NCBI GenBank assembly: GCA_963721405.1
Contig: CAVRJA010000014.1
Span: forward strand, 909,691 to 973,690
From: an uncultured Acidobacteriota bacterium
GTDB lineage: Bacteria > Acidobacteriota > UBA6911
Length of the DNA: 64,000 nucleotides
Reading direction: 5' to 3'
The notes below the pieces were generated by a model. It saw only the letters and a list, made by a program, of their open reading frames with translations. It was not told the DNA's origin and did no database searches. Shown in pieces: positions 3,872-57,100 of this stretch. The translations under genes were made by a program, and so were the position numbers. Position 1 is the stretch's first letter; each line of letters opens with the position of its first letter.

Positions 3872-6619
3872 ATGCGTCTCATAGTCCGGCAGCTATATTT
3901 TCCTTTTTTGCTTCTGATCACGTTATCGGTTCAACCGCTATCCTCCAGCCTGGCGCAGGAACGCACGCAGGCGCCGCGGGGAACCATCACGGGGACGGTG
4001 AAAGACCTCAGTAACGCGCTCGTCTCACGCGCAAAGGTTTTTCTGCTCAATTCCAGCCAGGCGACGCTGCGGGCGACGGAGACCGATGGGGAAGGGAAGT
4101 TCCGCATCGAGGACGTGCCGACCGGCGCCTATGAAATTCTGGTGTCCCGCGAAGGATTCACTCCTGAACGACGGGCGGTGGCCGTCACGGCAGGCAACCC
4201 GGTCGACCTGGCGATTATTCTCTCGGTGCGGCAAATCACTGAGCTGATCACCGTCACGGCCGAAACCGGCGCCGCCAGGGACAAGGACCTGGTTACGCAG
4301 CAGGTCAATGTGATCCCGGATACCGTCCTGGCGCAACGCACCACGGCCGTTCTTGCCCAGGTCGCGGACGAGGAAGTCGGCATTTCGCTTCAGCGCACCA
4401 GCCCGACGATCGGCTCGGTAATGGTCCGCGGCCTGACCGAGGTCGGCGTCTACATCGATGGGGTGCGGTACACGAATTCCACACAGCGGGGCGGCATCAA
4501 CACCTTCTTCAATCTCAACGATGCGACCAGCCTGGATGCCGTGGAAGTTTTGCGCGGTCCCAACACCGCCCAGTATGGATCGGACTCGCTCGGCGGCACC
4601 GTGCAACTCCTTACCAGGCAGCCGGCGCTCGGTTTTGCACAGCCGGAGGTCCATGGGGAGGTCAACACCTTCTTCAACAGCGCCGATCTCTCGAGCGGGG
4701 GCAACACGCTCGTGACTTACGGCACCCGGCGGCTGGGCATCCTGGCCAATGTTACGGGCCGTCGCGTCAACACGCTGCGCCCCGGGGGCGGCATCGACGG
4801 CCACTCTGCAATCACGCGATTTCTGGGCCTCTCTTCCAACGTCATGGGATCGTCCAGGCTGCCCGACACGGCGTTCACGCAATACGGCGGAACGATCAAA
4901 CTGAATTTTATGCCCACGTCGGACCAGAACATCAGCTTTCATTACCAGCGTGGCCAGCAGGACGGCGGCAAGCGATACGACCAGTTGCTGGGAGGGGACG
5001 GCAACCTGGTGGCCGATCTGCGCAACCTGATGCTCGATTTCGTTTACGGACGCTACTACAAGCTGCGGGCGGGTTTCTTCGACAGCTTCACCGCGACCGC
5101 CTCCTACAACAGCCAGCGCGAGGAGCGCGTCAATCAAGGCGGCAACGGCAACCCGCTGGCCGCCATCACCCACGATAAGGAACGCACCAGCACCTATGGG
5201 GCCAGCTTCTATGTCGACAAGCAGTCGTTCGGGCGCAACAGCTTCCTGTTCGGGGGTGATTTTTATCGCGATCACGTGAATGCGCCCTCGTACTCATTCG
5301 ACCCGTCCACCGGCGCAGTCACGCTGGTGAGGCCCCGTGTGCCTAATGGGGCGCGCTACATCCTGGCGGGAGCCTATGCCCAGGACGCCTTCGACCTGAT
5401 TCCGAAGCGTCTGCGGTTGAGCGGGGCGTTGCGATACAACGTCGGCTCGTATCTGTCCAGGGCCGAAAACAGTCCGCTGGTGAACGGGCAGCCGCTCTTC
5501 CCCGACGATTCCCTGCGCGTCGCCGATTTTTCGGGCCGCATCGGAATGGTGTTGACGCTGACTGACGGGTTCAACCTGGCGGCAAACTACAGTCGCGGCT
5601 TCCGCGCCCCCAACATCACGAGCCTCGGCTCGACCGGCCTGGTCGGCGTGGGTTACCAGGTGGCCACCAGCGACGTCGCGGGACTCGGCGCGACGATCGG
5701 CACCAGCGCGGACGACAGCGCCGTTTCGACCGGCATCGCGGTGGAGCCGCTGCGGTCGGAAATCAGCAACAACTATGAGGTGGGCCTTCGCTTCCGCAAC
5801 CGGCGCTTCGAGACGGACTTGACCGGTTTCCTGATCGAGTACGGCAATACAATTGTGCGGCAGACTCTGATTCTGCCCTCCGGGGCAGTCGGCCTTCGCC
5901 TGGGCAGCCAGGTGATCGAGCGCCAGAGCGCCAGCGGAGCGGTCTTTGTGCCACTTTCCTCTTCCCCCGTGCTGGTACAGGCCAACTTCGGCGGGACGCG
6001 GTTGTACGGCGCCGAATATTCCCTGGAAATCCGCCTGAACGACTCGTGGTCGCTTGGCGGAAATTACAGCTATGTGCGCGCGGAAGACAAAGCGACCGGC
6101 CAGCCGCCAAACCTGGGAGGCGGGGGCCTGCCGCCGCAGAGCGGCCTGGTGCGTCTGCGCTTCCAGCCGGCGGGCAAGCGCTATTGGGTCGAAGCCTACT
6201 CGACGCTTGCGGGCAGGCAGGACCGCCTCTCCTCACTCGATCTTTCGGACCGGCGCACCGGCGCCGCCCGTTCACGAACGAACATCCAGAATTTCTTCCG
6301 CCGCGGCGCCTGCGTCTACGGTCTGACAACGCCGGGTGCGGATGGGAAGTGCGGTTCCAGCGGCGGCACGCTGATCGCCACCGGCGAAACGCTGGCCCAG
6401 GTGCAGAACCGCGTCCTTGGGAGCGCCTCTTCGGCCCCGTTGTTTACGGCGATCCCCGGGTACGGCCTGATCAGCCTGCGCGGCGGTCTTGCCTTCAAAG
6501 AAAGGCACGAAATCACGCTCGAATTCAAGAACATTGGGGACAAGAGCCATCGCGCTCCCGGTTGGGGCGTGGATGGACCCGGACGCAGCGTGACGGCGCA
6601 CTACCGCGTGCGGTTCTGA
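3872..6619 (+). CDS. TonB-dependent outer-membrane receptor with N-terminal carboxypeptidase-regulatory-like domain
   Basis: Signal peptide MRLIVRQLYFPFLLLITLSVQPLSSSLAQ. CarbopepD_reg-like segment (GTITGTVKD...GKFRIEDVPTGAYEILVSREGF). Plug motif (VLRGPNTAQYGSDSLGGTVQLLTRQP). Long beta-barrel ending in C-terminal F (HYRVRF). The start was moved from ORF start 3776 to the ATG at 3872. Confidence 0.85.
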   Translation: MRLIVRQLYFPFLLLITLSVQPLSSSLAQERTQAPRGTITGTVKDLSNALVSRAKVFLLNSSQATLRATETDGEGKFRIEDVPTGAYEILVSREGFTPERRAVAVTAGNPVDLAIILSVRQITELITVTAETGAARDKDLVTQQVNVIPDTVLAQRTTAVLAQVADEEVGISLQRTSPTIGSVMVRGLTEVGVYIDGVRYTNSTQRGGINTFFNLNDATSLDAVEVLRGPNTAQYGSDSLGGTVQLLTRQPALGFAQPEVHGEVNTFFNSADLSSGGNTLVTYGTRRLGILANVTGRRVNTLRPGGGIDGHSAITRFLGLSSNVMGSSRLPDTAFTQYGGTIKLNFMPTSDQNISFHYQRGQQDGGKRYDQLLGGDGNLVADLRNLMLDFVYGRYYKLRAGFFDSFTATASYNSQREERVNQGGNGNPLAAITHDKERTSTYGASFYVDKQSFGRNSFLFGGDFYRDHVNAPSYSFDPSTGAVTLVRPRVPNGARYILAGAYAQDAFDLIPKRLRLSGALRYNVGSYLSRAENSPLVNGQPLFPDDSLRVADFSGRIGMVLTLTDGFNLAANYSRGFRAPNITSLGSTGLVGVGYQVATSDVAGLGATIGTSADDSAVSTGIAVEPLRSEISNNYEVGLRFRNRRFETDLTGFLIEYGNTIVRQTLILPSGAVGLRLGSQVIERQSASGAVFVPLSSSPVLVQANFGGTRLYGAEYSLEIRLNDSWSLGGNYSYVRAEDKATGQPPNLGGGGLPPQSGLVRLRFQPAGKRYWVEAYSTLAGRQDRLSSLDLSDRRTGAARSRTNIQNFFRRGACVYGLTTPGADGKCGSSGGTLIATGETLAQVQNRVLGSASSAPLFTAIPGYGLISLRGGLAFKERHEITLEFKNIGDKSHRAPGWGVDGPGRSVTAHYRVRF

Positions 6620-7194: not shown

Positions 7195-7290
7195 CCGCCC
7201 GCTCGGGTGTCGGGTGCCGGGGATCAGGTGCTGGGTGTTGGGTGCCGGGTGTTGGGTGCTTGGTGCCGGGTGTTGGGTGTTGGGGGCATA
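7195..7290. repeat. GC-rich tandem repeat array (GGTGCCGGGTGTTGGGTGCT-like units)
   Basis: gggtgtcgggtgccggggatcaggtgctgggtgttgggtgccgggtgttgggtgcttggtgccgggtgttgggtgttggggg. Inverted copies lie at 7600..7665 and 12711..12790. Confidence 0.7.
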
Positions 7291-7599
7291 AGAGTGTGTC
7301 GAATGGTTGATCCACGTCTGACGAGGCCCGAAGGGCCGGCAGTGCATAGGCCCGGCCGTCAGGCCGGGATAAGGATAACGAGGCAATTAGCGCCGAAGGT
7401 GCGGCACAAAATGTCCGGAAGTGCATTGAATGTGCCGGCCCTTCAGGCCTCGCTCTCCAGCGTGCCCGAACCCCGCGCTGACGCGCGGGGCGCTTCAATG
7501 CCGGCGCTTCGCGCATCCCCCCAGCTTGCATCTCAACCGTTGCCTACCCCTCATCAGCCCGACGCCTCGCGTCGACCATCTAATCCCCGTATCTCAAGC

Positions 7600-7665
7600 T
7601 GGTCCGACTCCCCAACCCCTGTCCCCCAACACCTGACACCCGGCACCCAACACCCGGCGCCTCCG
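7600..7665. repeat. GC-rich tandem repeat array, inverted copy of 7195..7290
   Basis: ccccaacccctgtcccccaacacctgacacccggcacccaacacccggcgcc is the reverse complement of the GGTGCC/GGGTGTT motif family. Together with 7195..7290 it brackets a roughly 310-bp hairpin-rich segment. Confidence 0.7.
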
Positions 7666-7707
7666 CGGCGATGATCCTTGGTAATATTGGTGGTACAGGA
7701 GCGGCGG

Positions 7708-10032
7708 ATGCAGCGGGGGTTTGTTCTCCAGAGCACATACAGGATCGAAGGCGGCAAGCCGGTCGTGCTGGTTTACGGCAAGCTGGAATCGGGCCAATCC
7801 TTCCTGATCCGGGACATGCGGCAACTGCCTTACTTCCATGTCCGGCGGGACGACGCGGAGCGCGTGCGGGCGCTGGGGGCGCACATCGTCGAAGGCGAAA
7901 ATTTGCGGAATACGCTCCGGGGCGAACCTGCCGTCCGGGTCGCGGCCCGAGAGCCCCGCGAAATTCCGCCGCTGAGGGAAAAGCTGGCGGCGAGCGGCAT
8001 CGAGTGTTTTGAAGCGGACGTCCCGTTTGCCACGCGCTATCTCATTGACCGCGGGATCCGCGGCGCACTCGAAATCGACGGGAATTCCGTAAGGGACGAG
8101 GGCGCGGGTGTGGGCGCCGTCTTCGAGAATCCCGAACTGCGCCCGGCCGACTGGTCGCCCCGTCTCTCAATCCTGTCCTTCGATATCGAGACCAACCCGC
8201 AGGCCGATCGCCTTCTCTCGATCGCCCTCGCCGGCTGCGGCGTTGCCGAAGTGATGCTCTTCACTCCGAAGGGCTACTCGACCGCTCCGGGAGCGGTTCC
8301 GTTTGCGAGCGAGAAAGCGCTTCTCGAGGCATTCGTGCGCCGCGTGAGCGAACTGGACCCCGACGTCATCACCGGCTGGAACGTCGTCGACTTCGACCTC
8401 GCCGTGCTCGCGAGAATCGGCGAACGCCTGGCAGTCCCGATCGCAATCGGGCGAGGTCCAGAGCCGTTGCGCCTGCGGTCTTCGAACTTTGCTCGTGCCC
8501 GGAACCAGGCGATCGTCACGGGAAGAATCGTGCTGGACGGAATCGAGTTGCTGCGCGGGGCCTTTATCCGCCTCGAGAGCTACTCGCTGGATGCGGCCGC
8601 GCGGGAGATCCTCGGCAAGGGAAAGACCGTCACCGGCCACGACCGCTCCGCTGAAATTGTCAGGATGTTCAAGGAGGACCGGGCGCGACTGGTCGAATAC
8701 AATCTCAACGATGCCCGCCTGGTGCTGGAAATCCTGGACGAGCTGAACCTGGTGCAACTGGCCGTTGAGCGCAGCCGCCTCACGGGCATGCCTCCGGACC
8801 GTGTCGCTGCCAGCATCGCGTCCTTTGATTTTCTCTATCTCTCGGCCCTGTCGAGCCGGGGCGTGGTGGCGCCGACGACCGACCCATCGGGTCCATGGGA
8901 CACGCCGACCAGCGGCGGGCACGTGCTCGACCCGCTCCCCGGCCTGTACCGCAACGTTCTCGTTTTCGACTTCAGAAGCCTGTACCCGAGCATCATCCGG
9001 ACCTTTCAGATCGATCCGCTGGGCTACCTGCCTTCGCCCCAACCCGGCGACGACCCGATCGTCGCCCCAAACGGCGCGGCTTTCCGCCGGAGCAAGGGCA
9101 TCCTGCCGGCGATCCTGGATGATCTGGTTCCCCGGCGCGCCAAAGCGGTGGCGGCGGGGGATAAGGTCGCCGGCCATGCCATCAAGATCCTGATGAACTC
9201 GTTCTACGGAGTGCTCGGAACACCGGCCTGCAGATTCGCTTCGCCCGCGCTGGCCAACGCCATCACCGGATTCGGGCGTGAACTGCTCCTGTGGTCCAGG
9301 AACCGGCTCGAAAGTTACGGCTACAAGGTGCTCTATGGCGACACGGACAGCCTGTTCGCCCTCTCCGGGCTGGAAGACCGCGGGGAAGCTCGCAGCCTGG
9401 GTCCGCGCCTTGCCTCCCGTCTCAACCGGGATCTGTCCGAGCACATCCGCAGCACGTGGCGGGTGGAGAGCCGTCTGGAACTCCGGTTCGAAAAAATGTT
9501 CCTCCGGTTCCTGCTTCCCGCCGTCCGCCACGGCACCGCCGGCGCCAGAAAGCGATATGCCGGCCTCGTGGAGGATAACGGCAGGGAGGAAGTGGTATTC
9601 ACCGGCATGGAAGCCGTTCGGCGCGACTGGACCGGCCTGGCCCGGCGGATCCAGCGCGAAATTTATCTGCGCCTGTTCACCGACCGCCCCGTGATCGAGT
9701 TCCTGCGCGAGATCGTGAAAGGCCTGCGCGCCGGACGATTCGATGATCAGCTGATTTACCGCAAGGCGGTCCGGAAAGACCTCGACGCCTATGTCGCCTC
9801 TACTCCGCCGCACGTCGCCGCGGCCCGCAAGTCGTCCGGCAGGCAAGGCTCCGTGGTTGCCTATGTCATAACCGTCAAAGGACCCGAACCGGCGGACGAG
9901 CGTCGTTCGGCGATCGATTACGAACACTACGTGCAAAAGCAGGTCAGGGCGGTGTCGGAGCCGGTGCTGGCCCTCCTCGATCTCGACTTCAACCGCGTAA
10001 TCGGCGACGACACCCAACTGAAGCTCTTCTAA
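7708..10032 (+). CDS. polB: DNA polymerase II (family B DNA polymerase)
   Basis: N-terminus MQRGFVLQSTYRIEGG resembles E. coli Pol II MAQAGFILTRHW. Exo I motif SFDIETN, Exo II YNLNDARL, motif A DFRSLYPSII, motif B KILMNSFYGVLG, motif C YGDTDS, C-terminal ...DTQLKLF. RBS GGAGCGGCGG before the ATG at 7708. Confidence 0.9.
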   Translation: MQRGFVLQSTYRIEGGKPVVLVYGKLESGQSFLIRDMRQLPYFHVRRDDAERVRALGAHIVEGENLRNTLRGEPAVRVAAREPREIPPLREKLAASGIECFEADVPFATRYLIDRGIRGALEIDGNSVRDEGAGVGAVFENPELRPADWSPRLSILSFDIETNPQADRLLSIALAGCGVAEVMLFTPKGYSTAPGAVPFASEKALLEAFVRRVSELDPDVITGWNVVDFDLAVLARIGERLAVPIAIGRGPEPLRLRSSNFARARNQAIVTGRIVLDGIELLRGAFIRLESYSLDAAAREILGKGKTVTGHDRSAEIVRMFKEDRARLVEYNLNDARLVLEILDELNLVQLAVERSRLTGMPPDRVAASIASFDFLYLSALSSRGVVAPTTDPSGPWDTPTSGGHVLDPLPGLYRNVLVFDFRSLYPSIIRTFQIDPLGYLPSPQPGDDPIVAPNGAAFRRSKGILPAILDDLVPRRAKAVAAGDKVAGHAIKILMNSFYGVLGTPACRFASPALANAITGFGRELLLWSRNRLESYGYKVLYGDTDSLFALSGLEDRGEARSLGPRLASRLNRDLSEHIRSTWRVESRLELRFEKMFLRFLLPAVRHGTAGARKRYAGLVEDNGREEVVFTGMEAVRRDWTGLARRIQREIYLRLFTDRPVIEFLREIVKGLRAGRFDDQLIYRKAVRKDLDAYVASTPPHVAAARKSSGRQGSVVAYVITVKGPEPADERRSAIDYEHYVQKQVRAVSEPVLALLDLDFNRVIGDDTQLKLF

Positions 10033-10886: not shown

Positions 10887-12363
10887 CGAAGGGCCGGCGG
10901 ACGCCGGTCTTTCCGGGATCGACTTTGCGTTTGGGATCCGACAGGAATTCCCTGAGGATGCGGTTCGCCTCCGGGTGCGCGAACAGGGGAACGTGCGTCA
11001 TTCCGGCGAATACCACAAGTTGTGAACCAGGCAGGTGCGCCGCCGTCGTCCGTGACCAGCTGACGGGAGTATCGGGATCGAATTCACCGGCAGCGATGAG
11101 GGCGGGCGTGTTGCTGCGGACCGGCTCATTCTCGGCGGCTCGAGGCTTGCCCTGTGGCCAGACCTGCAGAGCCTCGAGCGGCACGGCCGCCTGGACAAAC
11201 CTGGCCAGTTCGGCCGGCAGTCCCGCCGGCTTCAGGATCCGCTCCAAACGCTCGAAGGGGAATTCTTCATTGCACCAGACCGCAAGCCGCACGCCCCAGG
11301 CGAATCCCTGGGACGAGGCGAGATAGGATTCGGCCAGCGGCGCCAGGACCGCCGAGTCGCCGCGGCTGGCCGTGTCGAGGAGCAGCGGCAGGCGCGGGAT
11401 GAAACCTGGATCCTCGAGGCCTGCATAGACGCAATTCATGATGCCGGCCCCGTCGAGCCGCACTGACAAGGGCTTCCCGTCGATCGGGTTTTTCAGCGCG
11501 AGCACCACCGGCTGCAGGTTGGCCGCTTCCAGGCAACGTCTCCACCGGTCTTCGAAGCCGTTCAGCTTCAGCCGAAGTTGCTCATTTTCCCGCGCCGCGG
11601 CAATCAGTCTTTGAAAGACGTCGACGATGATGGCAGGGGCGGACTCGTCCCAGTTTGACTCCAGGGTCAGGACCGAATCGAGAATAGCGGATCGCACCCC
11701 GTCCGGCCTGTCCCTCAGCACGCTCAGCATCAGCTTGGTGCTGTAGGAACTGCCATAGAGATTCCAGGATTTGATGCCCAGCAGTTTCCGGAGATCGGCG
11801 ATGTCTGCGGCACTTTCCCTGGTTGTATAGCCGGCCGGGTCGATCCCCTTGGACTCATACTCGTGCAAGGTCTCCAGCAAGGCCTGCTTGACCACGGCCG
11901 GGTCAGGGTCACCGTTTAGGCGGTGGCCCCATCCCGAGCGGAGCGCCTCCGCGATGCGCGGGGCCGTCAGGGAGGGATCGGCAAAAAGGGTGCCTCGCTG
12001 CTCCAGGAGAATAATGTCGCGGTCCTCGAGGAGGGGATTGCGGCTGCGGTTCCGCGCCCGGCCGAGGATGCTTCCCCCCGGGCCGCCTGCGGACACGAGG
12101 ACCGGGTCCGGGCTGGGCGCCTGGGACCGGCTTTTCATGATGATGAAGGGAAGCTTGATCTCGCGAATGCTCCTCGCCGGGAAACGGCGCTCAGGGACAA
12201 CCAGGTATCCGGTCCGCAGATCCGGACTCTTCTCCACAATCGACGAAGGGAGAGCAGTCCACTCGACCCGGACCACGTCCGCAGATTGGCCAAGCCCTGG
12301 ACCGACAGCAAGCAGGCTCAGAGTGGCTAACGTCAACGTGATTCGATTCGAGGTGCCAATCAT
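10837..12363 (-). CDS. secreted alpha/beta-hydrolase, peptidase S33 (TAP/proline iminopeptidase-like) family
   Basis: Signal peptide MIGTSNRITLTLATLSLLAVGPG. Nucleophile elbow YGSSYSTKL. Abhydrolase architecture with a C-terminal TAP-like region. Start trimmed from 12522, because the upstream 53 codons translate the MITE-like repeat. Confidence 0.7.
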   Translation of the reverse strand: MIGTSNRITLTLATLSLLAVGPGLGQSADVVRVEWTALPSSIVEKSPDLRTGYLVVPERRFPARSIREIKLPFIIMKSRSQAPSPDPVLVSAGGPGGSILGRARNRSRNPLLEDRDIILLEQRGTLFADPSLTAPRIAEALRSGWGHRLNGDPDPAVVKQALLETLHEYESKGIDPAGYTTRESAADIADLRKLLGIKSWNLYGSSYSTKLMLSVLRDRPDGVRSAILDSVLTLESNWDESAPAIIVDVFQRLIAAARENEQLRLKLNGFEDRWRRCLEAANLQPVVLALKNPIDGKPLSVRLDGAGIMNCVYAGLEDPGFIPRLPLLLDTASRGDSAVLAPLAESYLASSQGFAWGVRLAVWCNEEFPFERLERILKPAGLPAELARFVQAAVPLEALQVWPQGKPRAAENEPVRSNTPALIAAGEFDPDTPVSWSRTTAAHLPGSQLVVFAGMTHVPLFAHPEANRILREFLSDPKRKVDPGKTGVRRPFATSFLRAPAGHIRRSA

Positions 12364-12394: not shown

Positions 12395-12710
12395 TTAACT
12401 GGTTTCTGTCGCGAAACTTGAGTTCGACCACAGGGCCGAGCGCCCAGGAGGGGCGCCAGAGAGTAGCCGGGGGCAAGCGGCGCGCTTTTCAGCGACGCGC
12501 GGCCCCCGGTAGGAAGTTGCATTTAAACGAGCCCCGGCAGGGGCGAAAGGCTATGTGCGCCATAGGCTTCTGTCGCCGGGGCTCCTCGCTGTGCGATATC
12601 CTACCGGGGGCTGCGCGCTACGCGCTTGCCCCCGGCTATTCTCTGCGGCCCCTCCGGGGCCGAGATCTTGCGCGCCGATTGCGCTGCCAGGGAGTTTCGC
12701 GACAGAAACC
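12395..12710. mobile_element. MITE-like palindromic repeat element with 18-bp terminal inverted repeats
   Basis: TIRs are GGTTTCTGTCGCGAAACT (12395-) and AGTTTCGCGACAGAAACC (-12710). Internal hairpin units (AGAGAGTAGCCGGGGGCAAGC...GCCCCCGG and GAGCCCCGGCAGGGGCGA...). A related copy lies at 56640..56830. No transposase. Confidence 0.5.
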
Positions 12711-12790
12711 TGCCCCCAACCCCCAGAACCCAACACTCAGCACCCGGCACCTGATTCCCGGCACCCGGCGCTCAGCGCCTGCCCTCAGGC
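12711..12790. repeat. GC-rich tandem repeat array (same family as 7600..7665)
   Basis: cctgcccccaacccccagaacccaacactcagcacccggcacctgattcccggcacccggcgc, immediately abutting the MITE-like element. Confidence 0.6.
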
Positions 12791-13707
12791 GGGGGAAGAG
12801 GCTGCGCCACATCGAGCGTAACCTTCCAGACTCCGGCCGCGTCTCGTTTCCAGAACCTCGCGTAATAGTATTTGCCATCGCCGGGCAGGGCGCCTGCGCC
12901 GGCGGAGACGGCGAGCACTCCGTGCGTGTAACCGAGATCAGCGCCAGGAGCGACCACGGCTGCAGCCGGCTCCCAGGTCCACGCTCCTTTCCGCCGCTCC
13001 AGCCGGGCGATGATTGCGGGCTTGCCCAACGCCGGGGCCAGGTTCTGGCGCAGCAGCCGCGCATGGTCCGCGAGGTATGTCGCATAGGCGCGCTCCACCC
13101 CCTCTGATTTGGATTGGGCAGAGAATCCGCGGTCTGTCTCGAGCAGTTGCCTGCGTTCCGCTTCCGGATCTGAGGTTCCCGCACGTGGTGAAGATAGAGG
13201 CTTGAATTCAGCGGGCAGTTTCCAGGCAGGCGGCCGCGAATCCGGCGGAGGATTCGGTGCTCCGGCATCCAGGATCACCTGCCATTTTCCGCCCGGCTGT
13301 TTGCGCCAGACAGAGGCATAGTTCCCGTGCTGCACCGGGTTACCGGTTTTCCCGCTACGGAACTCATACGGCCCGGTCGTATAACCAAAGTCTCCCGTGC
13401 GCGAAATGTCCGCGACCGCCGGGTACCATGACAGAATGCCGCCGGATTCCGTGCTCTCCGAGTACAACTTCCTGCCGTCAACGGGTCCCGGGCGAAAGAC
13501 GATGCTTCCTTCGGCCAGGAACGCCAGAAAAGCCTTCCGGATCCCCTGCTCAGCAGCCGCCTTTGAAAAATCGAGCTCGGACTGAACCAGGCTCGAGAGT
13601 CCGGCCCTGAGATCCAATGCTTCGGCGGGCATGCCTGGTTTCAAACCTGCCGGCGCAACCAGAGCCCCCGCTGTTCCTGCTATGGCAAGCAACCATGGGT
13701 TCCGCAT
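12772..13707 (-). CDS. secreted protein with tandem NTF2/SnoaL-like (DUF4440-like) domains
   Basis: Signal peptide MRNPWLLAIAGTAGALVAPAG. Two halves with similar patterns (GSIVFRPGP...GKWQVILD and LAPALGK...GVWKVTLD). Start trimmed from 13842 to the internal Met at 13707. Confidence 0.5.
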   Translation of the reverse strand: MRNPWLLAIAGTAGALVAPAGLKPGMPAEALDLRAGLSSLVQSELDFSKAAAEQGIRKAFLAFLAEGSIVFRPGPVDGRKLYSESTESGGILSWYPAVADISRTGDFGYTTGPYEFRSGKTGNPVQHGNYASVWRKQPGGKWQVILDAGAPNPPPDSRPPAWKLPAEFKPLSSPRAGTSDPEAERRQLLETDRGFSAQSKSEGVERAYATYLADHARLLRQNLAPALGKPAIIARLERRKGAWTWEPAAAVVAPGADLGYTHGVLAVSAGAGALPGDGKYYYARFWKRDAAGVWKVTLDVAQPLPPPEGRR

Positions 13708-13911
13708 AAGCCCTTCCTGCGGGAGAAAACTGTCTGGGGGGTTGTGAAAACCGCTCCTCCTCCCGATCACGCAACCGCTGCCCGGGAGCGGCCCGACTCT
13801 CAAACCGTCTTGCCTCGAGGAACACAGTATAGCGCTTGGCAAGGCTCGGCCGGAGGGCTATAAATTGGCTGGGGATGAATGAGAGGAACCGCGTCCCGGG
13901 AGGAGGAATCG

Positions 13912-21863: not shown

Positions 21864-21950
21864 GGCACGGATCTGCACGGATATGCACGGATCGGTCCAT
21901 GCGTGATGCCGGCATGACTGGATCCGTGCATATCCGTGCAGATCCGTGCC
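21864..21950. promoter_or_regulatory. perfect 30-bp inverted repeat built from three 10-bp direct repeats (TGCACGGATM), 27-nt spacer
   Basis: Arm 1 at 21864..21893 is GGCACGGATCTGCACGGATATGCACGGATC. Arm 2 at 21921..21950 is its exact reverse complement. There is no downstream U-tract, so this is a candidate operator or structured element rather than a simple terminator. Confidence 0.6.
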
Positions 21951-56405: not shown

Positions 56406-56639
56406 GGCTCGAACAAGCTCTGTCGCAAGAGCAGGTCCCGTCCGAGTACGTCCCGGCCGCCGGACGGGACCCCTCACAATCCCGACCGGATCCAAAAAGC
56501 GATGCCCGGCTTCCTGCCGCGCATTCGGCGATGCCCGGAGCATCACGCCCGGCTGGAAGGCAGCACATTTTCGGCATTGCCGGACAAAGGGGGAGTGACG
56601 GCGGTTGTCGGAAGTCCGCGGTCCCGTCCGGCGAGAATG

Positions 56640-56830
56640 TCTCAAAACCAGGCGTCCTGGAGGGACGCAGAGAGAGTAGCCGGGGGCGAGCCGCTCAGCG
56701 GCGCCGCCCCCGGACAGGCCAGGCAAGTGGTGAGAGCCCCGGCAGGGGCGACAGAAGTCATTTGTTTGCAGATGTTTTCTGTCGCCCCTGCCGGGGCTCG
56801 ATTCCTCCTTCGTCCTTTATCCCGGGCGGC
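56640..56830. repeat. palindromic repeat related to the MITE-like element at 12395..12710
   Basis: Shares AGAGAGTAGCCGGGGGCGAGC...GCCCCCGG and a near-perfect hairpin GAGCCCCGGCAGGGGCGACAGAAGTCATTTG / TTTCTGTCGCCCCTGCCGGGGCTC. Confidence 0.55.
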
Positions 56831-57100
56831 GCTTCGCTTTCCCGGGGCTACTGTCTCCGGCCCTTCCAGGGCTGGAATTGAGGGCATATCGCCGGGAGCA
56901 CGAGTTTTGAGACGGGCTCGGCGGCCGGGATGAGGCTGATGTGGCAATGCGCGCCTCCTCGCGGCTTGCCTATCAACCGTTGGACACCCTCGTAGTCGCG
57001 CTGCATCGGGAAAGGCGCGAAGCCTCAAGCCCACTCGAGCGTCGCATCGTGCCGGAAACCGCCGCGAGGACCTGCTGATTCTGTTACGATAACCGACGTT

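Follow-up and report, generated by a model that had tools for sequence, protein, structure and literature searches.

The segment at 12401-12710 of the window, the whole 64,000-nucleotide stretch of Acidobacteriota DNA that was analysed, is almost certainly a member of a dispersed repeat family. It is a hairpin-rich, intergenic element of 310 bp and is built as an inverted doublet of half units. On balance, we favour the reading that it is one copy of a widespread REP/BIME (REPIN-like) repeat family whose members are non-coding, palindromic and intergenic and contain several hairpins. The initial annotation had offered a MITE or a REP/BIME-like family; of these, the REP/BIME-like family is favoured, and a classical MITE is unlikely. 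The element had been placed at 12395-12710 (about 316 bp). Its right end was accurate, but the left arm begins at 12401, giving 310 bp. The inverted repeat formed by GGTTTCTGTCGCGAAACT and AGTTTCGCGACAGAAACC does exist, with 18 of 18 positions complementary, and all of the hairpin units named earlier were found in this copy (copy 1). Its parts are listed below.

12401..12418, + strand: left outer arm GGTTTCTGTCGCGAAACT, a small hairpin in itself (GTTTC-tgtcgc-GAAAC) and a perfect 18-nt inverted repeat with 12693-12710
12435..12511, + strand: left module (model R1 49.6 bits, E 1.8e-12)
12440-12456, + strand: hairpin 2 of the left module, GCGCCCAGGAGGGGCGC
12457-12466, + strand: linker of the left module, CAGAGAGTAG
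12467-12509, + strand: hairpin 1 of the left module, CCGGGGGC...GCCCCCGG, with an 8-bp stem
12529..12584, + strand: central pair of hairpin 3 units on either side of a short CTATG...CATAG stem
within 12529..12584, + strand: left hairpin 3 unit, GAGCCCCGGCAGGGGC+GAAAGG
within 12529..12584, + strand: right hairpin 3 unit, degenerate, TTCTGTCGCC(6-nt deletion)GGGGCTC
12602..12667, - strand: right module, in the order hairpin 2, AGAGAATAG, hairpin 1 on that strand (R1 59.9 bits, E 1.3e-15)
12693..12710, + strand: right outer arm AGTTTCGCGACAGAAACC

The predicted folding energy of the segment was -224.9 kcal/mol on the + strand (z = -14.2 against shuffles), and the z value on the - strand was -13.1. 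A related copy upstream of the MFS gene had also been claimed, and the presence of AGAGAGTAGCCGGGGGC and GAGCCCCGGCAGGGGCGA in both copies supports it. Each of these patterns has three matches in the window against about 0.25 expected. This copy 2 had been assigned to 56640..56830. Its existence was confirmed but its extent was not, as alignment with four copies of one MAG (L028, L037, L051 and L057) carried it from about 56620 to about 56931. In the same alignment, the left arm of the four begins at GTAG-GCCCCGGCCG. A third site lies near 7.3 kb.

56620..56648, + strand: left outer arm of copy 2, GGTCCCGTCCGGCGAGAATGTCTCAAAAC, an arm type unlike that of copy 1, aligned with the four MAG copies
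56647..56715, + strand: left module of copy 2, GCGTCCTGGAGGGACGC, AGAGAGAGTAG, then CCGGGGGCGAGCCGCTCAGCGGCGCCGCCCCCGG (R1 44.1 bits)
56734..56799, + strand: central hairpin 3 pair of copy 2, GAGCCCCGGCAGGGGCGACAGAAG ... TTTTCTGTCGCCCCTGCCGGGGCTC
56819..56879, - strand: right module of copy 2, diverged, GAGACAGTAG-CCCCGGG... (R1 34.0 bits, E 9.5e-08)
56904..56931, + strand: right outer arm of copy 2, GTTTTGAGACGGGCTCGGCGGCCGGGAT
7318..7515, unstranded: third, diverged mosaic of the same module type, with an Acido-Lenti-1 match above threshold and weaker modules (R1 12.5 and 11.1 bits)
7203-7284 and 7595-7660: inverted heptamer arrays bracketing this mosaic

Copy 1 and copy 2 are each an inverted doublet of a half unit of about 150 nt. 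The order within the half unit is outer arm, hairpin 2, linker A-R-A-N-A-(G/A)TAG, hairpin 1, spacer, hairpin 3 and GACAGAA, after which it terminates. The TAG is near-invariant (97 of 98 tabulated modules), is preceded by G or A and stands directly 5' of the G+C-rich 8-bp stem. The linker ends in GTAG in most modules and otherwise in ATAG, right before the stem CCGGGGGC/GCCCCCGG. A REP is defined by GT[AG]G plus a hairpin (PMC6006769, PMC3733652), the tetranucleotide being unpaired and 0-2 nt 5' of the foot of a short G+C-rich stem, and the module carries both. In about 85% of modules, hairpins 2 and 3 have loops that read G-N-A on the tagged strand. The layout of hairpin 3 followed by GACAGAA was seen in the 79 doublets found over all loci, with GAA/GNA loops and stems that vary.

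The hairpins are conserved as structures. In the covariation analysis, 93.1% of cells were paired, compared with 36-58% when the partners were slid, two-sided changes appeared in 12 of 15 pairs, and the observed values were reached by none of 500 shuffles. The MAFFT module alignment A3 misplaced short loops and was left out of the counts. The seed alignment A5, which includes loop-trimmed sequences and one edited sequence, was used to seed model R1 only and never for covariation. It is the local hairpins and not a long hairpin that are conserved, because the left and right hairpin 2 are unlike in 55 of 71 doublets. G.T wobbles (27) did not outnumber A.C mismatches (23) in the module, and therefore the pairing carries no strand signal.

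The module made of hairpin 2, linker and hairpin 1 is Rfam Acido-Lenti-1 (RF01687) on the complementary strand. This motif was first described from Acidobacteria, Lentisphaerae and Rhodopirellula and is classed in Rfam as a probable RNA (PMC2864571). Its seed members come from Acidobacteria and also from Lentisphaera, Rhodopirellula and Geobacter, and in the original seed the motif already recurs dozens of times per genome, in tandem as well as alternating arrays. None of the four modules in the two window copies reached the curated gathering threshold of 37 bits. The scores were 12.9 bits for the left module of copy 1 at 12441-12470(-), 24.0 bits for its right module at 12604-12661(+) and 20.8 bits for the left module of copy 2 at 56653-56713(-). 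They stay below 37 bits because hairpin 1 has loop insertions of 14-27 nt. The right module of copy 1 nevertheless reads as an Acido-Lenti-1-like motif on the + strand: the cmscan alignment of 12604-12661 contains the hairpin, the GGCUA-containing linker and the second short hairpin. Both stems and the GGCUAUUCUCUG linker are aligned, and the sole departure is a 14-nt loop insertion. The third site scored 38.5 bits at 7324-7369(-), above the threshold, and the four sister elements of copy 2 scored 48-54 bits. In the doublets L022 and L028, both halves exceed the threshold on opposite strands. The element is of an ordinary kind, whose building block was already catalogued and whose repeat nature was not recorded before.

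The exact 17-mer AGAGAGTAGCCGGGGGC was found at more than 170 loci, 57 of them in species-representative genomes and at least 120 in metagenome stretches, with up to nine in one genome (a MAG). Model R1 detected 98, 166 and 34 modules across three sets of fetched loci. These searches returned hundreds of related copies beyond the window, so the palindrome is not unique. The host groups are Acidobacteriota, Planctomycetota, Verrucomicrobiota, Armatimonadota and Thermoanaerobaculia. The supposed restriction to this lineage is contradicted by the architecture and the identical 17-mer in at least five phylum-level groups, and by a core module that is a known Rfam family. The genome loci contained 30 convergent doublets spanning 151-341 nt, mostly 220-230 nt, and 38 modules that were unpaired or back-to-back. 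One locus carries three doublets inside 11 kb. Copies occur as doublets, singlets and mosaics, nearly always in intergenic DNA and sporadically distributed. The flanking genes were in tandem at 44 elements, convergent at 29 and divergent at 18. As in GTAG-type REPs, there are many dispersed extragenic copies per genome, and inverted doublets are the chief organisation beside decaying singlets. The multi-copy, intergenic, palindromic and mosaic organisation that had been expected of a dispersed family was therefore borne out. The viral contigs searched gave no match to the element, and a literature string search with the core sequence gave irrelevant matches only.

Both window copies lie between co-directional genes. 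The hydrolase ORF is 561 aa long when read from an ATG inside copy 1, and a start at the ATG at 12363 gives 508 aa. The database protein has this shorter length, and hence the 53-codon N-terminal extension is false, as had been suspected. Three orthologous hydrolase loci are devoid of the element, their upstream spacers being only 99-168 nt and their synteny with the window being lost. The genes near elements are unrelated to each other. When ORFs within 2.5 kb of modules were clustered, the recurrent ones were spurious ORFs through the repeat, response regulators and ABC transporters. The exact-protein look-up of the MFS protein downstream of copy 2 returned no record, and look-ups of flanking genes returned only repeat-truncated contigs. 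No promoter-like or terminator-like signals were found beyond chance at the two window copies; sites of the intrinsic terminator type (a G+C-rich hairpin followed by a T run) numbered zero in copy 1 and one in copy 2, against 0.5 by chance. The only demonstrated effect of the window copies is misled ORF calling. Whether they also alter mRNA stability for the co-directional genes on either side is a matter of speculation. More generally, the elements break metagenome assemblies and cause false ORFs and N-terminal extensions. The GC-rich tandem array described at 12711..12790 is present but weak (TRF scores of 32-41 over 12715-12769). It forms a repeat of its own that shares homology with the arrays on either side of the 7.3-kb site. 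An association of elements with tandem arrays was rejected (17 observed against 15 expected).

Could the element instead be a classical MITE, derived by deletion from a DDE-type insertion sequence? In that case a transposase acting in trans would bind the terminal inverted repeats of 16-18 bp, and its staggered cuts would produce target-site duplications. Such an origin is unlikely, although it has several observations on its side. Terminal inverted repeats are present and perfect in copy 1 (18/18). The 16-mer GTTTCTGTCGCGAAAC occurs at about 45 loci, frequently in inverted pairs separated by 200-390 nt, and in unrelated contigs at least 12 elements, 204-387 bp long, have this arm type at their ends. 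The flanks of the arm-delimited elements are AT-rich (65-75% AT against 41% overall), and about half of the copies have TA at both junctions. Left and right flanks matched more within than between elements (permutation p = 0.002 for the mean and p = 0.025 for at least 5/6, n = 12). Target-site duplications had been proposed as a check; short AT-rich direct repeats do surround related copies, but copy 1 of the window is without one (2/6). A MITE should be best conserved at its ends, and the reverse was found. The outer arms differ completely between sub-families, whereas the inner modules are constant, even across phyla. The copy 1-type arm is also separable, standing as a bare palindrome in L057 and joined to other hairpins in L015 and L102/L104. 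The role of defining transposon termini that had been given to the 18-bp arms is consequently not supported. The duplications vary in length and offset among the 12 elements, a small sample. An autonomous element or transposase with matching terminal inverted repeats, for which a search had also been proposed, was not found in 1.07 Mb of element-bearing DNA, and the termini are neither shared with an autonomous IS nor better conserved than the interior. Three candidates for an autonomous form were rejected. In L034 the doublet is split by a 1.7-kb cassette with PD-(D/E)xK-like and SeqA_N-like ORFs and no transposase; the arms 1.2 kb apart in L064 include a chance match inside a TonB-receptor-like gene; and the 1.5-kb insertion in L100 lies outside the element. 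Among the fetched homologous loci, no indel with a module and no filled-versus-empty orthologous site was seen. Since the flanking direct repeats are commoner than chance, a transposition-like insertion step is possible; repeats of this short AT-rich type are not expected from HUH/Y1 chemistry.

The module might alternatively be a functional sRNA or a cis-acting RNA, for example one that protects upstream mRNA from 3' exonucleases or forms a processing site, so that the doublet would represent two RNAs. The strong covariation in both hairpins, the Rfam class (PMC2864571) and the hairpin 2 loops, many of which read C(UUCG)G or C(UCCG)G on the Rfam strand, agree with this idea. The window copies would be co-transcribed with their co-directional neighbours, and REPs elsewhere in bacteria act at the RNA level (PMC3733652). 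However, the module is on both strands of every doublet, and therefore any transcript would have one sense and one antisense copy. What the loops have in common is G-N-A on the tagged strand, and only a part of them are UNCG on the other strand. The chance-level promoter and terminator signals, the near-neutral orientation classes, the unrelated neighbours with element-free hydrolase orthologues, and the presence of dozens of copies in a genome, whether dispersed, tandem or mosaic, likewise make a structured RNA improbable. A unique local palindrome acting as an operator or attenuator of the hydrolase gene, with a chance likeness at the second site, has in its favour that copy 1 precedes the hydrolase start codon by 38 nt. 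The hundreds of related copies elsewhere refute it, as does the lack of such an element at the three hydrolase orthologues, and its probability is practically nil.

Returning to the REP/BIME-like reading, the elements are probably mobile or formerly mobile DNA. The units would spread, now or once, as non-autonomous DNA. The (G/A)TAG-tagged strand, when single-stranded, would fold into G-N-A-looped hairpins, and a trans-acting protein would then recognise the folded strand. The most likely candidate is a Y1 HUH (RAYT-type) tyrosine transposase, which may read the GTAG guide 5' of the hairpin. The window copies would then be passive insertions. Mobilisation specifically by a RAYT/Y1 enzyme is a real possibility that falls somewhat short of probable. 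The window and all loci were searched by phmmer with an approximate E. coli RayT query and the verified L020 RAYT. In three independent lineages (L020/L063, L072/L128 and L030), a RAYT gene (NCBIfam NF047646 above cut-off) has a doublet 1.7-2.6 kb away. Each of these three loci is bracketed by other, different repeats and not by the module, which bracketed no transposase gene, RAYT or otherwise, in the 1.07 Mb of element-bearing DNA. A search for RAYT homologues brought up none on the 1.96-Mb source contig, and screening the fetched DNA for the class 3 Y1 signature (regex NHVH and YV.xEQ) gave no class-3-like gene.

The cross-phylum identity of the core suggests a conserved recognising protein. 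In its strongest form, which we regard as unlikely, the half unit (hairpin 2, A-R-A-N-A-RTAG, hairpin 1, hairpin 3 and GACAGAA) would be the substrate of one conserved trans-acting protein common to Acidobacteriota, the PVC phyla and Armatimonadota. The recogniser could be a class 3 Y1 HUH protein or a host factor that binds single-strand DNA or RNA. In that case Acido-Lenti-1 would be the marker of an ancient REP superfamily that spans phyla and in which the sequence and not the fold alone is kept constant and the outer palindromes would be preferred landing sites. The family opens no new kind of biology. Its value is that the Acido-Lenti-1 "candidate sRNA" is reassigned to REP/BIME-like genomic repeats with the full anatomy of a unit of about 150 nt and a doublet of about 310 nt, and that GTAG-tagged palindromic repeats are extended to Acidobacteriota, where they had no earlier report.

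Bacterial MITEs such as Correia, RUP and Nezha are 100-400 bp long, with terminal inverted repeats, high copy number, strong secondary structure and AT-rich or TA insertion sites. The present elements resemble them in size, terminal inverted repeats, copy number, structure and insertion sites. Unlike them, their termini are not the conserved part, no autonomous IS matches, and target-site duplication is inconsistent. With Acido-Lenti-1 they share the two hairpins, the conserved GGCUA...U.UG linker and the presence in Acidobacteria (Weinberg et al. 2010, PMC2864571). The Rfam entry, however, is an isolated 46-nt sRNA, whereas in our elements the motif makes up half the core of an inverted doublet of about 310 bp, and the window doublets have three further hairpin types. 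The conserved features, namely (G/A)TAG 5' of hairpin 1 and the G-N-A loops, are more natural on the strand opposite to that of Rfam. The hairpins associated with class 3 Y1 HUH proteins likewise have hosts mainly in Planctomycetes and Acidobacteria and a high copy number, as in Solibacter usitatus with its roughly 600 copies (Quentin et al. 2018, PMC6006769). Compared by description only, they differ in having a CnGA foot and no GT[AG]G (PMC6006769), against (G/A)TAG here.

The elements also resemble the GTAG REPs, REPINs and BIMEs, which RAYT (TnpA-REP) mobilises (Bertels & Rainey 2011, PMC3116915; Di Nocera et al. 2013, PMC3733652; Quentin et al. 2018, PMC6006769). Both consist of G+C-rich hairpins outside genes that carry an unpaired GT[AG]G at the 5' foot and occur in many copies per genome, mostly as inverted dimers and also as singletons and clusters. 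Heterodimers are common, spacers carry small stem-loops, false ORF extensions arise, and the host genomes contain RAYT genes. Dimers enclosed in longer palindromes, and structured spacers, also have a published precedent among REPs (PMC3733652). GTAG REPs were not reported from Acidobacteria in that study, which found only TIR-flanked 'TIRYT' genes there. For our elements, unlike GTAG REPs, no REPtron (a RAYT gene bracketed by these repeats) was found in the 1.07 Mb searched, and short flanking direct repeats are possible. Their unit measures about 150 nt and contains four hairpin types, against 20-40 nt for REPs, and hairpins 2 and 3 and the outer arm are conserved extras outside the canonical REP definition. 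Finally, the 17-mer of linker plus stem is identical across phyla, whereas REPs are usually species-specific.

The palindromic element of the window is real, and it is a REP/BIME-like palindromic repeat of a known kind. Its first copy (copy 1) is a nested palindrome of 310 nt bounded by GGTTTCTGTCGCGAAACT (12401–12418) and AGTTTCGCGACAGAAACC (12693–12710), which are complementary at 18/18 positions. The 18-bp inverted repeat of the initial annotation is therefore present and perfect, although its left coordinate, truly 12401, had been placed 6 nt too low. The computed fold of copy 1 reached –224.9 kcal/mol (z = –14.2) on the plus strand and z = –13.1 on the minus strand. Copy 1 sits between two minus-strand genes, 61 nt downstream of a DUF4440 gene (12772–13842, minus strand) and 38 nt upstream of an alpha/beta hydrolase gene. 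The true start of the hydrolase is the ATG at 12363, and the recorded protein is the 508-aa form (100% identity and coverage). The 561-aa ORF running into copy 1 is an artefact, as the initial annotation had stated. No promoter-like or terminator-like signals beyond chance were found in the two window copies. The module, which is the hairpin 2–linker–hairpin 1 core of each half, was absent upstream of three hydrolase orthologues (70–73% identity; spacers 99–168 nt; synteny not conserved). Therefore, the element is not a conserved leader of the hydrolase gene. In another assembly (Logan contigs of sample ERR12037368), the contig with the window's DUF4440/Fe-ADH genes and the contig with the hydrolase gene both stop about 100 nt or less from copy 1; short-read assembly seems to break off at the repeat.

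The second related copy claimed earlier was confirmed, since both core strings common to the two copies have three matches each in the window against about 0.25 expected by chance. Copy 2 aligns to copy 1 in the same orientation and extends from about 56620 to about 56931, according to an alignment with the fetched loci L028, L037, L051 and L057 (four copies of one acidobacterial MAG). Its outer arms, GAGA-N-GTCTCAAAA inside GCCCCGGCCG...CCGGACGGGG, are unlike those of copy 1, yet they still pair. Modules were searched for with R1, a covariance model whose seed was partly loop-trimmed and used for searching only. It found exactly four strong modules in the window, corresponding to the two doublets, and two weak ones near 7.3 kb. 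Each element half follows one plan in all copies, and the second half is its reverse complement:

Part 1: outer arm
Part 2: hairpin 2, a 5–7-bp stem with a triloop
Part 3: linker A-R-A-N-A-(G/A)TAG
Part 4: hairpin 1, an 8-bp stem CCGGGGGC/GCCCCCGG with a loop of 3 to 27 nt
Part 5: spacer of 15–30 nt
Part 6: hairpin 3, then GACAGAA

Covariation was counted on a model-derived alignment of 98 modules, in which paired cells amounted to 93.1% versus 36–58% after the 3′ partners were slid by 1–3 columns; this alignment was fitted to the model and so favours pairing. None of 500 shuffles attained the observed pairing values. Two-sided changes occurred in 12 of 15 pairs (7/7 in hairpin 2 and 5/8 in hairpin 1), and stem variety is plain in the raw sequences (GCCCC/GGGGC, GACGCC/GGCGTC, GTGCCC/GGGCAC, GATCCCC/GGGGATC, CCGTAGGC/GCCTACGG). 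On the tagged strand, which bears (G/A)TAG 5′ of hairpin 1, the hairpin 2 loop is a G-N-A triloop in about 85% of modules. Hairpin 3 has variable stems and loops that are mostly GAA or T-GAA-G. TAG, preceded by G or A, was present in 97 of the 98 tabulated modules. G·T and A·C mismatches were balanced (27 and 23), so pairing alone gives no identification of the strand. Of 71 non-redundant doublets, 55 have a left and a right hairpin 2 of different sequence (median identity 0.56). The striking end-to-end hairpin of copy 1 is not the conserved feature.

The element core is already catalogued as Acido-Lenti-1 (RF01687). In a permissive Rfam scan the window copies gave sub-threshold matches of 24.0, 12.9 and 20.8 bits against the 37-bit threshold, with the two halves matched on opposite strands. 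The alignment to the window copy covers both stems and the GGCUA linker with a 14-nt loop insertion. The modules of the sister elements of copy 2 (L051, L037, L057 and L028) scored 48–54 bits, above the curated threshold, which was also passed by a Planctomycetales copy (L020) and, on opposite strands, by the two halves of each of the doublets L022 and L028. The original description of Acido-Lenti-1 names only Acidobacteria and Lentisphaerae as hosts, mentions that group II introns lie nearby in some cases, and rates the motif a probable non-cis-regulatory RNA (PMC2864571). Its seed alignment holds 89 members, including dozens of copies per Lentisphaera genome and members from Koribacter, Rhodopirellula and Geobacter. 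Some seed copies form tandem runs with a period of 74–192 nt, others run on alternating strands, and one pair converges at a distance of about 200 nt. The window also contains a third site:

7324–7369, minus strand: Acido-Lenti-1 match, 38.5 bits in Rfam, above the curated threshold
7318–7515: diverged mosaic around this match, with further weak modules at 7383–7440 (plus strand) and about 7436–7515 (minus strand)

This mosaic is flanked by inverted C-rich/G-rich heptamer arrays at 7203–7284 and 7595–7660 (unit TCGGGTG, 11.7 copies on the left), and a weaker homologous C-rich array adjoins copy 1 (12715–12769). The arrays are a separate repeat accompanying mosaics in this genome, without general association elsewhere; tandem arrays near modules were not enriched (17 observed versus 15 expected). 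Another inverted pair of tandem repeats consists of the 10-mer arrays GCACGGATCT (21865–21893) and its reverse complement GATCCGTGCA (21921–21949), 2.9 copies each and 28 nt apart.

The 17-mer AGAGAGTAGCCGGGGGC was found at 57 loci of a species-representative genome collection, about 40 of them with the full architecture by eye. Most are in Acidobacteriota/Terriglobia MAGs (CAWHWE01 9, DASXTB01 6, CAYGWQ01 6), and others are in Planctomycetota, a Verrucomicrobiales MAG, an Armatimonadota MAG and Thermoanaerobaculia. The family had been called lineage-specific, which is wrong, as the identical core occurs in Acidobacteriota and several other phyla. A metagenome scan with the 17-mer gave at least 120 stretches, chiefly of peat, wetland and soil origin, and the viral contigs searched gave no match. 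R1 found 98, 166 and 34 modules in three sets of fetched loci. Copies within a genome are 85–90% identical over 300–480 nt. The genome loci contain 30 convergent doublets (module-to-module span 151–341 nt, mostly 220–230) and 38 modules that are unpaired or back-to-back; the total across all loci is 79 doublets. Half units ending after GACAGAA are frequent among the unpaired modules. The elements in the fetched loci are intergenic, and the orientation of flanking genes is near neutral (44 tandem, 29 convergent, 18 divergent). Placements inside ORFs were rejected, because these ORFs are spurious products of the G+C-rich repeat.

Copy 1 has the outer arm GTTTCTGTCGCGAAAC, a 16-mer that is conserved widely and forms a small hairpin of its own. 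At least 12 elements of 204–387 bp are bounded by this arm, which is also attached to other hairpin content. A bare outer palindrome, TCTGTCGCGAAAC-GCC-GTTTCACGACAGA, without inner modules, was seen in a single case (L057 1438–1472); it could be an unoccupied target, the footprint of an excision or a small palindromic repeat in its own right. A fourth arm type occurs in L079 and L100. Since arms are reused with other content, stand bare and exist in further types, the system is a BIME-like mosaic with exchangeable arms. A MITE-like cut-and-paste insertion step stays as a rival because of the flanks of arm-delimited elements, which are 65–75% AT versus 41% overall. The left and right flank of one element match each other more closely than do flanks taken from different elements (n = 12; p = 0.002 and p = 0.025), for example TAGTTA/TAGTCA, AACTT/AACTT and AATCCA/AATCTA. 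Speaking against this rival, the interior is constant and the arms are variable, whereas a MITE would show the reverse. Window copy 1 has no flanking direct repeat. Little evidence bears directly on mobility; homologous fetched loci, every one of which was chosen for carrying the element, showed no indel that contains a module. The MITE proposal of the initial annotation is not established, and its REP/BIME alternative is supported by the tag with its hairpin, extragenic copies, inverted dimers and mosaic organisation.

Several rearrangements were observed near elements. In L051, a 78-bp direct repeat (1537–1614 and 1899–1976, 96% identical) flanks an element, and its downstream copy holds a solo hairpin GTAG-GCCCCGGCCG|CCGGACGGGG, the outermost copy-2-type stem closed on itself. 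The doublet at L034 1472–3339 lacks the left hairpin 3 and is split by an insertion of about 1.7 kb with three small ORFs, one PD-(D/E)xK nuclease-like (YhcG_C/NucS_C) and one with a SeqA_N-like N-terminus; it looks like a small cassette inserted in the element centre. Among the homologous contigs L079, L100 and L113, one (L100) has a 1.5-kb insertion at 7400–8911, about 75 nt outside the outer arm of a doublet, and a separate 2.0-kb indel lies elsewhere in the same pair of contigs.

G-N-A triloops closed by C–G are unusually stable DNA mini-hairpins. The tagged strand of the element may be a single-stranded DNA substrate, with which these triloops would fit. RAYT (TnpA-REP) proteins, Y1 HUH enzymes that work on single-stranded DNA, have GTAG-tagged REPs, REPINs and BIMEs as their substrates (PMC3733652, PMC6006769, PMC3116915). 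Three independent lineages have a bona fide RAYT gene (NCBIfam NF047646 above cut-off) at a distance of 1.7–2.6 kb from a doublet, namely L020/L063, L030 and L072/L128, the last of which belongs to the genome of the element-rich MAG CAWHWE01. Each gene is bracketed by its own repeat, different from the module. Two are as follows:

L072 251–5160 (same region in L128, L172 and L050): classic REPtron, RAYT gene at 4371–5102, NF047646 109.8 bits
L020 1–900 (same gene in L063): Planctomycetales RAYT bracketed by inverted repeats of about 38 nt, GGGTGGCCCG...GGGGGACGCGAATTC

The intergenic regions around the L072 RAYT contain five copies of a (GTAG/CTGG)CGCAGACCCC...GGGGTCTGCGATTTCCCG hairpin, one of them 150 nt from an Acido-Lenti-1 doublet. 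This hairpin, also written CGCAGACCCC...GGGGTCTGCG-ATTTCCCG, is GTAG/CTGG-tagged and unlike the Acido-Lenti-1 module. The L020 repeats carry reiterated GGATGGGTGGCCCG units, lie 1.8 kb from a doublet and form a 'TIRtron'-like arrangement. In the fetched element-bearing DNA, neither a class 3 Y1 gene nor a gene bracketed by outer arms was found, and the ORFs near modules included no other recurrent neighbour gene.

Three points are new: the anatomy of the complete doublet, the interpretation of Acido-Lenti-1 as a repeat with a GTAG tag, and the occurrence of the element, with an identical 17-mer core, in Acidobacteriota as well as several other phyla. Overall interest is modest; the main value lies in annotation, namely false ORFs and assembly breaks, and a conserved protein may recognise the module. 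The published definition of GTAG-tagged REPs, REPINs and BIMEs is a G+C-rich hairpin with an unpaired GT[AG]G tag at its 5′ foot (PMC3733652, PMC6006769, PMC3116915). The present element matches this definition and their typical organisation, with a tag of this type at the 5′ hairpin foot, numerous extragenic copies, inverted dimers with structured spacers, heterodimers and singlet remnants, and embedding within longer palindromes.
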